This document shows, piece by piece, positions 12,227-52,079 of a stretch of 64,000 nucleotides of DNA. The notes beneath the pieces were generated by a model, which saw only the letters and a program-made list of their open reading frames with translations, did no database searches and was not told the DNA's origin. The translations under genes and the position numbers were made by a program. Source of the stretch: an uncultured Oscillospiraceae bacterium (GTDB taxonomy: Bacteria > Bacillota > Clostridia > Oscillospirales > Oscillospiraceae). The DNA lies in contig CANROF010000002.1 of assembly GCA_947632155.1 (NCBI GenBank), forward strand, positions 9,892 to 73,891, in the 5' to 3' direction. How positions within the stretch are numbered: the first letter of the stretch is position 1; each line of letters starts with the position of its first letter.

Positions 12227-12547
12227 TACTGATCCCTGATTAAAAGCTCATACTAATATTCATTTAAAATAAGGCACCGAGCGGCGAGAATTTTTCGTGT
12301 CAGGCAAGGAAGACGCCGCAGGGAATACTTTGTGTATTCCCAAGGCGGCTGACGCAGCATGGCGCGAAAAAGTCCGCCGCAAATGGCTTATTTTAATTGA
12401 ATATTAGTATCAAACCGAGCGGCGAGGATTTTTCGCGTCAGACGAGGAAGACTGCGCAGGGAATACTTTCGTATTTCCAAGCAGGCTGACGAAGTATGGC
12501 GCGAAAAAGTCCGCCGCGAATTTGAGATTTTGATCAGGGATTAGTAT
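12226..12547 (+). mobile_element. 161-bp foldback MITE, subtype B (ends ATACTGATCCCTGATTAAAA / TTTTGATCAGGGATTAGTAT), split by a nested subtype-A copy
   Basis: 24 nt (12226-12249) plus 137 nt (12411-12547) make 161 nt. This is colinear with the intact B copy at 23269-23429. Confidence 0.8.
12250..12410 (+). mobile_element. 161-bp foldback MITE, subtype A (ends ATACTAATATTCATTTAAAAT / ATTTTAATTGAATATTAGTAT)
   Basis: Near-identical to the copies at 17398, 36105 and 51768. Inserted inside the B copy. Confidence 0.85.
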
Positions 12548-17397: not shown

Positions 17398-17558
17398 ATA
17401 CTAATATTCATTTAAAATGAGACACCGAGCGGCGAGGATTTTTCGTGTCAGGCAAGGAAGACGCCGCAGGGAATACTTTGTGTATTCCCAAGGCGGCTGA
17501 CGCGGCATGGCGCGAAAAAGACCGGCGCGAATGGCTTATTTTAATTGAATATTAGTAT
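17398..17558 (+). mobile_element. 161-bp foldback MITE, subtype A
   Basis: Terminal inverted repeats plus a shared core (CCGAGCGGCGAGGATTTTTCGTGTCAGGCAAGGAAGACGCCGCAGGGAATAC...). Confidence 0.85.
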
Positions 17559-32500: not shown

Positions 32501-33140
32501 TTTTCGCCGTCTCCGACTGGCGGCGCAGGGGCTCCACCTGGAGCTCCAGCTCGCCGATCTTGTCGTTGACCCGGGTCAGGTCCTCCTCCGCCCGCTCAAG
32601 CTTGCGCTCGGACTCCTCCTTGCGGTGGCGGAAGCGGGAGATGCCCGCCGCCTCCTCGAAGATCTCCCGCCTGTCGGTGCTCTTGGCGGAGAGGATGGAA
32701 TCTATTTTCCCCTGGCCGATGATGGAGTACCCGTCGCGCCCGAGGCCCGTGTCCATGAAGAGCTCGTTTATGTCCTTTAAGCGGACGGGCTTTTTGTTTA
32801 TGTAGTATTCGCTCTCCCCGGAGCGGTAGTAGCGGCGGGTGACCTGCACCTCGTCCAGGTCCTCCGAAAGACGCCTGTCGGTGTTGTCCAGGGTCAGCGA
32901 CACCTCGGCGTAGCCCACCTGGCCGCGCCTCTCCGTGCCGCCGAAGATGACGTCCTCCATCTTCCCGCCCCGGAGGGCCCGGGTGGACTGCTCCCCCATC
33001 ACCCACTGGATGGCGTCGGCGATATTGGATTTTCCGCTCCCGTTGGGCCCGACGATGGCCGTCAGGGGCTTATCGAAGGTGAGGACGGTCCTCTCGGGGA
33101 AGGACTTGAAGCCCTTCAACTCCAGCGCTTTGAAATACAA
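29574..33140 (-). CDS. smc: chromosome segregation protein SMC
   Basis: 1188 aa with a TTG start. Walker A GPNGSGKSN, long coiled coils, a hinge, signature LSGGEKA and Walker B FVVMDEIEAALD. Confidence 0.96.
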   Translation of the reverse strand: MYFKALELKGFKSFPERTVLTFDKPLTAIVGPNGSGKSNIADAIQWVMGEQSTRALRGGKMEDVIFGGTERRGQVGYAEVSLTLDNTDRRLSEDLDEVQVTRRYYRSGESEYYINKKPVRLKDINELFMDTGLGRDGYSIIGQGKIDSILSAKSTDRREIFEEAAGISRFRHRKEESERKLERAEEDLTRVNDKIGELELQVEPLRRQSETAKKYLILRDELRGLEISLWLTDLENIAQRVKELREESISCAGELERARDELQRLYSAGEEFAQRMRDKDLEAEAVREEVSRADAAVSQQEAETAVLEANIKHTQENIERINEELERRRGQSRSIQEQIEQYWERLRAIDGEKDGIGREQEDIRAHMEELFRSEGVFDENAGKLTRESAELSDRLSRDRVELGALTASDAELTERAKAVDAEAQAQSEKLREARAGAGDNARGLEAAREEAQSLQNVCKGYAMRAEGLRGRSERAGDARMKAEMELGAVRSRRQMLSDMEREYEGYSKAVKTVMRDAGRGVLRGIRGPAGELVKAGEKYALAVETALGAAVQNIVVDTDSDGKNVINHLKRLDAGRVTLLPMNVIRGSLLSERGLENEDGFEGVAAELASFDPQYRDIFLNLLGRTAVADGMDSAVRIARKYNHRFRIVTLDGQVINAGGSMTGGSVSKNTGILSRANELKALTEKEAGLTERLERARGEAEEIKRALTAAEYELSVASGELREKEDQVLKLAAAGEHFDTLIGGLEARLEELEREKAAVSTRRGDAGARAKELQDEIGTLEKRLDELTRAVTEQTGGRERLETARRELEDREAALREKRASLDAEAASLERSAEELSRLREGLSGDDESQERAIKELRERLGDLNSQVVEREEKARRLRDGAAALREKIARISDEKLAIEAERSRSDRLLQDKNNALLDLERSASRVESRLEAAGLEEKQIIDKLWDTYELTRSAAMEQRLELPSVPQAKRRTGELRREMSALGTPNLGAIEEFERVNARYTYLTGQRDDIEKSRRELLGIIGDITGRMETIFREELERINAGFQQTFLELFGGGRASVSLEDPEDVLGSGIEIRVQPPGKTLKTITLLSGGEKAFVAIALYFAILKVRPTPFVVMDEIEAALDDANVIRVAEYMRGLTERTQFLTITHRRGTMEEADVLYGVTMQEQGVSKVLVIDLAEAEKSVGK

Positions 33141-33289
33141 ATGACGACACTCCCAATTATTGCTTCAAGCAACAGTCTTCCAGTCTAAAATAGAAGTATA
33201 CCTCTAACGGCAAAAGATTGCAATGAACAAATTATTAAAATAAATGACAAATCCCCCCGATTTTCTCGGAGGGATATATATAACTTAAC

Positions 33290-33476
33290 TGGCTCGAAAG
33301 CCCGCTGGGCTTTCGATGCCAAGGGGAACGTGCGGAAACCCTCTCTCGAATTCTGCGGAATTCGAGAGAGGGTTTCCTGCTGTTTTGCTCCGCGCACGGC
33401 CCGCAGGGCCGAACACTCCGCAAAACAAAAGGGATTTTTCGCGAGGCAGAGCCCCGCGAAAAATATTGAATTTGAG
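33290..33476 (+). repeat. family-C modular intergenic repeat, copy 1 (four hairpin modules joined by conserved linkers)
   Basis: Linkers CAAGGGGAACGTGCGG, CCTGCTGT, ACAAAAGGGATTTTT and AAAAATATTGAATTTGAG are shared with copies 2 and 3. Perfect 17-bp hairpin at 33336-33376. Confidence 0.8.
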
Positions 33477-33528: not shown

Positions 33529-34074
33529 TCAGAATTCGATTCCCTGCCAGTTGGTGACCTGGGCGGAGACGGTGAGCTCCGGGGTGTGGCCGGCGGAGAG
33601 GGTGAAGCCGATGCCGTCCCGGACGGCCCGGACGGTCCCCGGGACGTCTCCCGGCTCCACCGTGAAGCCCAGGGAGGTGAAGACCTCCTCAAACTCCCCG
33701 GCGTCCGAATGGACCGTGAGGCCGTAGACCGTGACGGCGGGGTCTGTGACACTGATGCGCGTCACAAAGCAGCCCCCGTCGGCGTAGTCCGGCCAGGCGG
33801 TGAGGGTGTAGAGGACGCGCTCCGCGTCCTCAAGGTCATATCCGGCCCCGAGAAGCTGCCGGCCGCCCATCATGCCCGGGACCTCCGCGTGCCCGCTCCA
33901 GTCAAAGCCGGAGGCGTCGTCGCATATCCACAGCTCCAGCGGCGTGTCCTCCGGCCGGGGCGGCACGGCGTCCTCCGGCGGGGCATCGCGCCGGAGGGCG
34001 GTGGCCGCGGTGAGTAACCCCACGGCCAAAATCACGGCGCCCAAAAGGAGGGCGACGCGCTTATTCGTTTTCAC
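33529..34074 (-). CDS. hypothetical membrane-anchored/secreted protein
   Basis: GTGA overlap with the upstream gene. N-terminal signal/anchor KRVALLLGAVILAVGLL. I recognise no domain. Confidence 0.6.
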   Translation of the reverse strand: MKTNKRVALLLGAVILAVGLLTAATALRRDAPPEDAVPPRPEDTPLELWICDDASGFDWSGHAEVPGMMGGRQLLGAGYDLEDAERVLYTLTAWPDYADGGCFVTRISVTDPAVTVYGLTVHSDAGEFEEVFTSLGFTVEPGDVPGTVRAVRDGIGFTLSAGHTPELTVSAQVTNWQGIEF

Positions 34075-36104: not shown

Positions 36105-36265
36105 ATACTAATATCCATTTAAAAGAAGACACCGAGCGGCGAGGATTTTTTGTGTCAGGCAAGGAAGACGCCGCAGGGAATACTTTGTGTATTCCCAAGG
36201 CGGCTGACGCCGCATGGCGCAAAAAAGGCCGTCGCGAATGTCTTATTTTAATTGGATATTAGTAT
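36105..36265 (+). mobile_element. 161-bp foldback MITE, subtype A variant
   Basis: Ends ATACTAATATCCATTTAAAAG / ATTTTAATTGGATATTAGTAT. Its last base is part of the radical-SAM gene stop codon. Confidence 0.85.
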
Positions 36266-48500: not shown

Positions 48501-48533
48501 CAAAAAACGACCCGGCCCCCCGCGGGGGCCGGA
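48501..48533 (-). terminator. terminator downstream of the HAD gene and family-C copy 2
   Basis: CCGGCCCC-CGCG-GGGGCCGG followed by GTCGTTTTTT on the minus strand. Confidence 0.7.
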
Positions 48534-48548
48534 TCAGCTTGTCAAAAT

Positions 48549-48739
48549 CTCAATTTCAATATTTTTTCCAAGGACATGCGCCTTGGAAAAAATTCCTTTT
48601 GTTTTGCGGAGTGTGCGGCCCTACGGGCCGTGCGCGGAGCAAAACAGCAGGGAAGTTTTCGCTGAATTTCGCAAAATTCAGCGAAAATTTTCCGCACGTT
48701 CCCCTTGTCGGAAAAAGGCCAAAGGCCTTTTTTCGACAG
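48549..48739 (-). repeat. family-C modular intergenic repeat, copy 2
   Basis: The reverse complement aligns module-by-module with copy 1. Stems H1, H2 (lower part) and H3 differ but remain paired. Confidence 0.8.
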
Positions 48740-51504: not shown

Positions 51505-51654
51505 GCTGGTCCTCCCCCGTAACTCCTTTTGTCCCCCCGGCATAGACTTAAAGTAGCCGGCCGGCGCCAGCCGGCTTTCATATAGGGGCCGGAAAAAGGC
51601 GGCGCGCCGCCCCCGGCCCCATCGGCCTTTATACTTATACTTATCTCTATTCCG

Positions 51655-51684
51655 ATTATACCCCCAACATCTTGTATCCGTCAA
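51655..51684 (-). promoter_or_regulatory. candidate promoter upstream of rpe
   Basis: TTGACG, 18 nt, then TATAAT on the minus strand. Confidence 0.45.
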
Positions 51685-51715
51685 GCTAAAAGAAACACGT
51701 CCGCCTTTCACCGCC

Positions 51716-52072
51716 CCAAATTCAATATTTTTTGCGGGGCTCTGCCTCGCAAAAAATCCCTTTTATCATACTAATATCCAATTAAAATAAGACATTCGCG
51801 CCGGCCTTTTTCGCGCCATGCGGCGTCAGCCGCCTTGGGAATACATACAGTATTCCCTGCGGCGTCTTCCTTGCCTGACACGAAAAATTCTCGCCGCTCG
51901 GTGTCTCATTTTAAATGGATATTAGTATCAAATCCGGTGTGCCCGGCCCCTGCGGGGCCGGACGCGCCGGATTTGACAGCAGAAAGGCCCGGACCGAATT
52001 CCGCAGAATTCGATCCGGGCCTTCCGCACGCATCCCCTTGGCATTTGAAGCCCCGCAAAGCGGGGCTTCAAA
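51716..52072 (-). repeat. family-C modular intergenic repeat, copy 3, interrupted by a MITE (51768-51928)
   Basis: 51929-52072 carries modules H1, H2 and H4; 51716-51767 carries the linker, H3 and the terminal TATTGAATTTGGG. Confidence 0.78.
51768..51928 (-). mobile_element. 161-bp foldback MITE, subtype A (reverse orientation), inserted into a family-C repeat
   Basis: The core is present in reverse complement. The flanks on either side are the two halves of family-C copy 3. Confidence 0.85.
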
Positions 52073-52079
52073 GCCAGAA

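Follow-up and report, generated by a model that had tools for sequence, protein, structure and literature searches.

The 64,000-nucleotide stretch of DNA analysed here, which we call the window, comes from an uncultured Oscillospiraceae bacterium (GenBank assembly GCA_947632155.1, contig CANROF010000002.1, positions 9,892 to 73,891 of the forward strand) and carries three copies of an intergenic element composed of hairpins and conserved linkers in the order H1, L1, H2, L2, H4, L3, H3 and L4. A first-pass annotation of the sequence had placed these copies, with this module order, at 33290-33476 on the plus strand and at 48549-48739 and 51716-52072 on the minus strand, and re-inspection of the sequence finds all three there, with the adjustments to their extent given below. 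Each sits singly between housekeeping genes: anti-sigma and SMC genes for copy 1, HAD-hydrolase and Cys-Met lyase genes for copy 2, and GroEL and ribulose-phosphate 3-epimerase (Rpe) genes for copy 3.

Three copies in the window

The apex of hairpin H2, GAATTYTGCGRAATTC, occurs three times in the 64-kb window, only in the three copies, where 0.15 occurrences would be expected by chance, and AAAAATATTGAANTTG is confined in the window to the same three copies (chance expectation 0.03). Neither nhmmer nor a covariance model run without filters finds a fourth copy in the 64 kb. Compared with dinucleotide shuffles, the copies fold far more stably, with z = -8.8 (copy 1), -6.4 (copy 2) and -15.3 (copy 3).

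Copy 1 occupies 33290..33476 on the plus strand, with an uncertain 3' boundary that possibly extends to ~33490, and scores 156 bits against the covariance model (E=9e-44). It is antisense to both flanking genes, which lie on the minus strand: a 181-aa gene that ends at 33529 and the SMC gene, which starts at 33140. The copy opens with H1 (33290..33321), a terminator-like hairpin TGGCTCGAAAGCCC-GCT-GGGCTTTCGATGCCA whose stem sequence differs among copies, and continues through L1 (33320..33337), which consists of CAAGGGGAACGTGCGG and the beginning of the conserved GGAA base of H2. H2 itself has a hypervariable 5' arm (ACCCTCTCTC, 33338..33347), a conserved apex (GAATTC-TGCG-GAATTC, 33348..33363) and a hypervariable 3' arm (GAGAGAGGGT, 33364..33373) that is the full complement of 33338-33347. 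L2 (TTCCTGCT, 33374..33381) runs into the first base of the stem of H4 (33382..33426), whose base stem GTTTTGC/GCAAAAC covaries, whose internal loop is conserved and whose apex is a GC-rich hairpin of variable sequence. After L3 (AAAAGGGA, 33427..33434), whose T-run is part of the next stem, comes H3 (TTTTTCGCGAGG-CAGAG-CCCCGCGAAAAA, 33435..33463), with an A-C mismatch found family-wide that is G-T on the opposite strand, and finally L4 (AAAAATATTGAATTTGAG, 33459..33476).

Copy 2 is a full-length member of the subfamily that we call type A, running from CTGTCGAAAAAAGG to GAGATTTTGACAAGCTG on the minus strand at 48535..48739 and also scoring 156 bits. The location given by the first-pass annotation was right, but the 3' end lies 14 nt further on, at 48535 (...ATTTTGACAAGCTG). 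This copy follows the stop codon of the HAD-hydrolase gene and precedes the same gene's terminator, a hairpin ATCCGGCCCCCGCGGGGGGCCGGGT followed by a T-run at 48508..48536 (minus strand; minimum free energy, MFE, -23.2), and it ends exactly at the 5' foot of that hairpin, the first pair being 0 nt from the element end. Its H2 apex, on the minus strand at 48664..48679, is the T/A variant GAATTT-TGCG-AAATTC, flanked by the variable arms AATTTTCGCT (48680-48689) and AGCGAAAACT (48654-48663).

Copy 3, also on the minus strand, is in two parts. The 5' part (H1, L1, H2, L2 and H4; 51931..52077) lies directly 3' of the GroEL stop codon and includes an H2 with its apex at 51996-52011 and arms at 52012-52021 and 51986-51995; the 3' part (L3, H3 and L4) is at 51716..51765. 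The copy is present as annotated, but its extra length is a nested 159-nt MITE (miniature inverted-repeat transposable element) of a separate family (51769-51927), which splits the copy just after H4 and is bordered by TGA at 51928-51930 and 51766-51768. The lower stems of H2, which had been described as complementary in each copy, are so without exception in copy 1, while A-C mismatches occur towards the base in copy 2 and a single T-G in copy 3. Next to copy 3, the Rpe leader (51505-51715) contains a strong promoter-like site, TTGACG-N17-TATAAT, and then a GC-rich structured stretch, GGCCGATGGGGCCGGGGGCGGCGCGCCGCC..., for which Rfam gives a weak, chance-level hit to Pseudomon-groES (E=0.66).

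A dispersed family of covarying helices

When a genome collection was scanned for GCGGAA-N(6-16)-GAATTYTGCGRAATTC, at least 107 stretches matched. Among the matches listed, about 106 are true copies, with the copies from the other genomes following the pattern that the first-pass annotation had described. One exact pattern was used for the collection, the genomes are short-read metagenome-assembled genomes (MAGs), and the gene calls are heuristic. Apart from a few chance matches, the hosts are at least 17 species-level Oscillospiraceae MAGs from rabbit gut ('Lapin'), and one of them, Lapin-008 bin18 (CANQFV), carries more than 40 copies alone. The copies are small, non-coding and dispersed in intergenic DNA in both orientations, with a conserved core of ~165 bp and a length of ~205 bp in type A, the best-defined subfamily; the arms of H2 vary in length among copies, so that any reading frame would be shifted. 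Scans of IMG/VR with the H2 pattern gave 0 matches, which indicates that the family is not phage-borne, and a pattern for the 3' half gave one chance match in AT-rich DNA. A BLAST search with copy 2 matched none of the annotated plasmids and phages, and a literature search for the motifs as strings found no paper that prints them. The family is a large, undescribed group of small non-coding mobile DNA elements of rabbit-gut Oscillospiraceae.

Crude gene calls based on GC content at third codon positions (GC3) describe the context of these copies. The median distance between the stop codon of a co-oriented gene and the start of the element is 21 nt. Of the upstream genes, 69 point the same way as the element and 19 the other way (~22% antisense), and the surrounding genes are convergent in 26 cases, tandem sense in 21, tandem antisense in 11 and divergent in 5. 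One locus of CANQFV, L057, holds a copy that is syntenic with copy 1 of the window (the SMC proteins are 72.7% identical) and has a different H1, H2 and H4; independent insertion at this site is conceivable. At this locus the SMC promoter and leader, TTCATTGCAA ... TATACT ... TTTAGACTGGAA.ACTGT (window 33140-33290; L057 2590-2680), is the sole intergenic DNA that can be aligned between the window organism and Lapin-008 bin18, and in both an element copy lies immediately upstream of it, oriented alike.

An alignment of the 86 copies without large insertions allowed us to ask which parts are held constant and how. Outside the search pattern, mean pairwise identity is 93% in linker L2 and 84% in L3, versus 46% for both arms of H2. 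RNAalifold predicts the H2, H4 and H3 hairpins of the first-pass annotation, with compensatory double changes at 26 of 42 pairs. A standard pair is found in 96.5% of cells, versus 79.1% in shuffled alignments and 42-60% when partners are slid by 1-3 columns; both sides have changed in 635 cells (shuffled, 178; slid, 86-206), and the covariation score is 0.459 (shuffled, 0.136; slid, 0.07-0.17). The claim that structure is kept while sequence changes thus stands, beyond what chance and shared ancestry would give. The H2 apex covaries between two states that the pattern left free, GAATTC...GAATTC in 69 copies and GAATTT...AAATTC in 35, with only 2 mixed, and in more distant copies the whole apex helix is replaced (AAAGGTC-TGCG-GACCTTT) with the loop kept. 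The 10-bp middle of H2 exists in 80 distinct versions among 106 copies and is almost always complementary, and at single variable pairs of H2 the four Watson-Crick types occur at similar frequencies without any G-U (for example AU 25, UA 23, CG 17 and GC 17). The TGCG loop has a fixed orientation and is never CGCA, which implies that recognition of the unpaired parts is sequence- and strand-specific.

Covariation of this kind could be explained by an RNA: a small RNA or a module of 3' untranslated regions (a terminator, insulator or mRNA stabiliser) whose helices are under selection for the RNA fold and which transposition merely spreads. Conserved single-stranded linkers and loops that alternate with covarying helices are a classical RNA signature, and the constant loop orientation, the terminator-like H1 and the position of the copies, 78% of which are co-oriented with the upstream gene and lie ~21 nt past its stop so that many could be co-transcribed, would all fit. 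The pairing itself speaks against such an RNA. Variable RNA helices in Rfam families usually carry several per cent of G-U pairs. Here G-U makes up ~0.9% of 3599 cells over all helices, and in the H2 stems we count 1152 Watson-Crick pairs, 43 A-C, 20 G-U and 19 other combinations, such that wobble pairs are not favoured, being no commoner than A-C and equalled by the other mismatches. The count of mismatches over all helices (113 A-C cells against 32 G-U, or 59 against 30 over distinct helices) could still be read in favour of an RNA, since A-C on the given strand is G-U on the opposite one; one conserved position of H3 contributes half of the A-C cells and most of the excess, with 63 copies showing A-C there and 22 A-T, equivalent to G-U and A-U on the opposite strand. 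A further tally puts H2 at 21 G-U, 37 A-C and 42 other cells. If one strand matters more, it is then the strand opposite to the one on which the first-pass annotation wrote the element, but in most copies this strand is also antisense to the upstream gene.

Searches for transcription signals and relatives point the same way. Promoter calls and inspection found no conserved promoter on either strand of the element; the sole promoter-like site called near copy 2 is that of the downstream gene. An outward or internal promoter was considered on the basis of a reverse-strand motif, TTGTCA-N-TATTTT, and set aside because its spacing is variable and it is not conserved: in type A this -35/-10-like motif is wrongly spaced in the window copy, and L4 variants with ATGCTCG have lost it. 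Furthermore, in copies flanked by duplicated hairpins (described below) the element is located behind the intact terminator of the upstream gene. The first-pass annotation could match the element to no named RNA family, and Rfam agrees: at the gathering score it has no hit to it over the window, and at an E-value threshold it gives, for the three copies on both strands, only chance miRNA-type hits far below the gathering score; a tRNA/tmRNA scan of the window found nothing related to it. We consider a structured RNA unlikely on this balance. The annotation's preference for selection on RNA structure is not upheld, and the cruciform DNA that it offered as an alternative is the better half of its interpretation. 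Judged from sequence patterns, pairing that is restricted to Watson-Crick types would fit DNA palindromes, and would also fit arms that are copied from each other.

Insertion at the feet of terminator hairpins

Several observations demonstrate that the family moves. Copy 2 is missing in a related strain (Logan run DRR855154, locus L115), where the HAD gene is followed directly by its terminator, and in the same strain copy 3 is present without the nested MITE (L122). In 14 of 91 copies, direct repeats of 22-53 nt abut both element ends (alignment scores 32-75, versus a maximum of 27 in 300 mismatched-pair controls), and 12 of these 14 repeats are complete hairpins that share no sequence with one another. 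The meaning of the repeats is clearest between sugar-binding-protein and GH32 genes, where in CANQFV (L095) the 29-nt hairpin GCGAGGGCCGCCCAACAAGCGGCCCTCAA stands on both sides of the element and in CANQZF (L128) the orthologous intergenic region has a single GAGGGCCGCCCAAAAAGCGGCCCTCAA and no element. The L128 GH32 shares 94% identity with its counterpart in CANROC (L080), where the element occupies the same locus, and other species have their own single terminators there. With two hairpins in the filled site and one in the empty site, the duplicated hairpin is a target-site duplication, though hairpin duplication rests on this one clean empty/filled pair. The first-pass annotation had set the element apart from simple MITEs. 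We agree that the family is atypical for a MITE, but the contrast does not hold for mobility, given the presence/absence polymorphism, the duplications confirmed by an empty site and the nesting with other MITEs.

The element targets the feet of hairpins. In 15 of 19 type-A copies, 0-2 nt separate the 3' end (...TTTTTTGACAAACTG, terminal CTG) from the base at which a strong hairpin (MFE <= -15.1) begins to pair, and about half of the type-A copies show whole-hairpin duplication. The terminal inverted repeats of type A, CAGCCTGTCGAAAAA and CAGTTTGTCAAAAAA, agree in 12 of their 15 positions. We also asked whether H1 is in general the upstream copy of a duplicated target hairpin; this holds for L071 only and is not significant overall. 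Integration by a Cas1 or casposase-like enzyme was considered as well, for its resemblance to repeat duplication in CRISPR arrays, and set aside, as no gene evidence supports it.

The target hairpins themselves also change. In L044 the loop of the duplicated hairpin is inverted between the two flanks (ATCC / GGAT), and between the orthologues L080 and L095 the loop of the upstream hairpin is inverted (CCAACAA / TTGTTGG), in both cases with unchanged stems; these are loop flips of terminator palindromes. The downstream hairpin copy in L080 carries a deletion between two ACAA microhomologies. In the empty allele of copy 2 (L115 801-830) the terminator stem is bracketed by an identical 9-mer, CGTTTTTTG, which could be the remnant of an older duplication or of an excision at the hairpin.

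Taken together, we think it likely, with a probability of roughly 0.6, that the three window copies are members of a non-coding, non-autonomous, MITE-like mobile family that is moved by a structure-reading transposase and whose hairpins act in folded DNA. The enzyme would recognise DNA secondary structure, not target sequence, and would insert the element where a terminator-type palindrome has its 5' foot. Standard DDE chemistry joins the 3' ends of an element to the staggered 5' ends of the target, after which the gaps are filled. A duplication as long as the palindrome would require top-strand cleavage at the left foot and bottom-strand cleavage at the right one, and gap repair would then duplicate the entire hairpin on both sides to give hairpin-element-hairpin; other insertions would leave one hairpin and possibly remove a few bases. 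H1, H2, H4 and H3 with the conserved loops and linkers may be cis-acting features that are read in cruciform or single-stranded DNA, and if the hairpins are indeed read in folded DNA, stems would be constrained for pairing only and sequence would be constrained only in loops and linkers. When one arm of a near-perfect palindrome changes, intrastrand template switching might quickly mirror the change in the other arm or revert it. Gene conversion among the dozens of copies in a genome may keep the long 3' part uniform but stall at the heterologous stems of H1 and H2, such that those stems stay unique.

The closest known behaviour is that of the insertion sequence IS1272 (IS1182 family, Firmicutes), which inserts into terminator hairpins and inverted repeats irrespective of their sequence (PMC4923244, PMC5678879). 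Duplication of a whole stem-loop is a branch of the model for IS1272 (pathway b in Fig. 13 of Wan et al. 2017, PMC5678879), while the outcome actually observed with this element is stem-loop deletion (Furi et al. 2016, PMC4923244; Wan et al. 2017, PMC5678879). Our family resembles IS1272 in its Firmicute host, in hairpin or inverted-repeat targets without a sequence consensus, in the joint at the foot of the stem-loop and, for window copy 2, in the removal of target bases without duplication. It differs in being a ~200-bp non-coding unit with four internal hairpins, as opposed to a 1.9-kb insertion sequence, and in duplicating the whole hairpin where for IS1272 deletion alone has been observed. 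By analogy with IS1182-type elements, which have 16-bp inverted repeats, the transposase may be an IS1182-like DDE enzyme, and the family may belong to such a system. Unusually long and variable target duplications (8-514 bp) are known from IS1549/IS1634 (PMC2266710). They are comparable to the long, variable duplications of our family, but coincidence with palindromes is unreported there, whereas here the hairpin sets the length.

The family can also be placed among small bacterial repeats. ERIC/IRU, Correia/NEMIS, RUP and BOX are small, non-coding, intergenic multi-copy repeats that occur in both orientations, often in 3' untranslated regions, and are foldable and mutually nested; compensated stem changes have been reported for some folding bacterial repeats, such as ERIC. 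In ERIC, Correia, RUP and BOX, duplications are short and of fixed length (for example TA) or missing, the build is one long imperfect hairpin or a set of simple modules, and copies are fairly uniform. In contrast, we find hairpin-length duplications, four local hairpins with conserved single-stranded linkers, and one essentially randomised 10-bp helix.

A different possibility is that the hairpins are single-stranded substrates of an HUH transposase (RAYT or IS200-type) or of a tyrosine recombinase, with the mosaic tolerated or used by the host. As with REP/BIME/REPIN elements, palindromic units and conserved linkers form a mosaic at gene 3' ends in high copy number, and the hairpin would be selected as a requirement for spread; intergenic regions of CANQFV are moreover packed with several other palindromic modules. 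As with integron attC sites, structure is conserved over a variable sequence, and a folded single strand with a preferred strand is recognised in attC, to which the asymmetry seen here (G-T on the reverse strand) would correspond. HUH single-strand transposition and tyrosine-recombinase integration yield no target-site duplications, however, and the whole-hairpin duplications of this family are confirmed by an empty site. REP elements have conserved stems, no target duplication and a single-copy RAYT gene, none of which is seen in this family with its hypervariable stems, and no RAYT-like or integrase gene is a repeated neighbour in 790 kb of carrier loci plus the window. An attC site has R and L core boxes and a variable apex, and belongs to a cassette array that adjoins intI. 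In our family the apex and loops are conserved, the copies are dispersed among housekeeping genes without cassette arrays, target duplications occur, and no GTTRRRY-type boxes are present in the alignment of 86 copies. We give an origin of this REP- or attC-like kind very little credence.

Several points also weigh against a mobile element moved by a structure-reading transposase. A DDE transposase normally needs the ends only, so that the conservation of internal loops and linkers is unexplained by known MITE biology, and the conservation of GCGGAA and of the apex is partly by construction, as the search pattern fixed both. The excess of A-C over G-U fits a structure that is read on the reverse strand. 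The documented behaviour of IS1272 is deletion without duplication, duplication being merely a branch of a published model, and the less clean pair, that of window copy 2, has no duplication and 10 nt (CCGTTTTTTG) in the empty allele that are absent from the filled one. Subtypes other than type A have no clear ends, and the global similarity of 5' and 3' ends is not significant. We found no autonomous partner, in the form of type-A end pairs 600-4000 bp apart, in the 790 kb of carrier loci or the window, and no transposase or multi-copy open reading frame there either, a weak negative that covers these loci only. Finally, gene conversion and drift leave unexplained a set of H2 stems whose arms are swapped.

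The hypervariable H2 segment and its neighbours

The middle of H2 behaves unlike the rest of the element. Copies from the same genome that are 97-100% identical outside H2 have unrelated H2 stems, and within CANQFV copies without a single difference over ~100 nt, from L2 to L4, bear unrelated and perfectly paired H2 hairpins, although L1 may differ. The orthologues L080 and L095, on the other hand, share an identical H2 stem including two mismatches and have different H4 modules. From these comparisons it follows that H2 is stable in place and differs between paralogues, and that modules are exchanged among copies; the family evolves as a mosaic. One or two compensated steps separate many H2 stems from one another, and others are related by a swap of arms: the 10-mer ACGCCCCCTC serves as 5' arm in L022 and as 3' arm in L019, and 20 stems have an arm-swapped relative within 2 mismatches, versus 0 in a reversed-arm control. 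On linear duplex DNA, such stems cannot arise by one inversion or one homologous exchange.

Simple sources of new stems were looked for and dismissed. Relative to permuted pairs, the stems show no enrichment for sequence copied from the local flanks or from elsewhere in the element. A nested mini-element, made of the arms and apex and landing in an existing element, is rejected, as all 114 apex motifs lie in family context, and a search for copies that lack H2 gave one short match (L009:+7786) that is likely due to chance. Flip-flop inversion of the H2 hairpin was rejected because the TGCG loop never reads CGCA.

It is conceivable that the middle of H2 is rewritten at each transposition, in that the hairpin is opened and resynthesised and each new copy receives a new self-complementary 10-bp 'barcode'. 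The 80 distinct stems in 106 copies, the unrelated stems in otherwise near-identical copies of one genome, and the arm-swapped stems would be explained, as would the shared stem and mismatches of L080 and L095, which tie change to paralogy and not to time in place. To our knowledge, no transposition chemistry does this. The stems are also unrelated to local flanks, relatives that are one or two compensated steps apart are what ordinary descent would leave, and mosaic gene conversion of the 3' part accounts for most of the pattern without a new mechanism. We regard rewriting of H2 as highly improbable. The simplest reading is that the hypervariability may come from stems constrained for pairing only, arms mirrored by template switching and gene conversion that stalls at heterologous stems, a reading that does not account for the arm swap. 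A broader proposal is that an uncharacterised cruciform- or hairpin-specific system cuts the feet of stem-loops, copies whole terminators and rewrites the 10-bp H2 segment on moving, so that each insertion has its own paired barcode. Such a system seems very unlikely to us; were it real, the arm-swapped stems would be the footprint of a duplex segment that flips inside the folded hairpin.

Other repeats of the same clade share these intergenic regions. The MITE nested in copy 3 belongs to a family of 159-nt elements with 26-nt terminal inverted repeats (TACTAATATCCAWTTAAAATRAGACA), present in the window at 12251-12409, 17399-17557, 36106-36264 and 51769-51927, which is probably the 'first' repeat family of the first-pass annotation; it also interrupts H3 of the element copy in L053. 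A third repeat of ~100 nt (...CTCGTCGTCGCTGAAGCCGCTTAACCTCGCCCCGCCGCAAGCGGCAGGGCTCAGGCG...CCCCACGCAATCATGATTGCGTGGGG...) lies in the H4 apex of copies in L002, L004, L008, L021, L060, L071, L081 and L108, and in other contexts in L101, L107 and L003. It replaces the 5' arm and loop of the H4 apex and keeps the 3' arm, which resembles stem-loop replacement of the IS1272 type. Downstream of the element in Lapin-008 bin18 (L003, L009, L010, L013, L019, L023, L034, L089, L101 and L107) we see long mosaics of other palindromic modules, such as GGGGACGGTTCTTTTGTCACACC...GGGACTAAAGAACCGTCCCC and ...CCGTTGACCGGAGGCCTTGACCCGGCGTTACAG, which point to a whole set of hairpin-associated repeats in the clade.

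Two features of the family are worth following: the duplication of whole terminators, and the paired, hypervariable and sometimes arm-swapped segment of H2. With more than 12 duplication-flanked copies and a matched empty site, the first gives natural evidence for shape-reading transposition that duplicates a whole terminator, formerly only a branch of the IS1272 model. The H2 segment is unique per copy and stable in place, and could serve to tag insertions and strains; if it is generated during transposition, this would be a new mechanism. The family is also a warning for RNA discovery, in that mobile DNA can give strong covariation and conserved 'loops', and comparing G-U with A-C mismatches separates the two cases. 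Short-read assemblies break at copies of the family. For its hosts, an uncultured and abundant gut clade, the family adds hairpins, and sometimes a second terminator, to the 3' ends of housekeeping genes.

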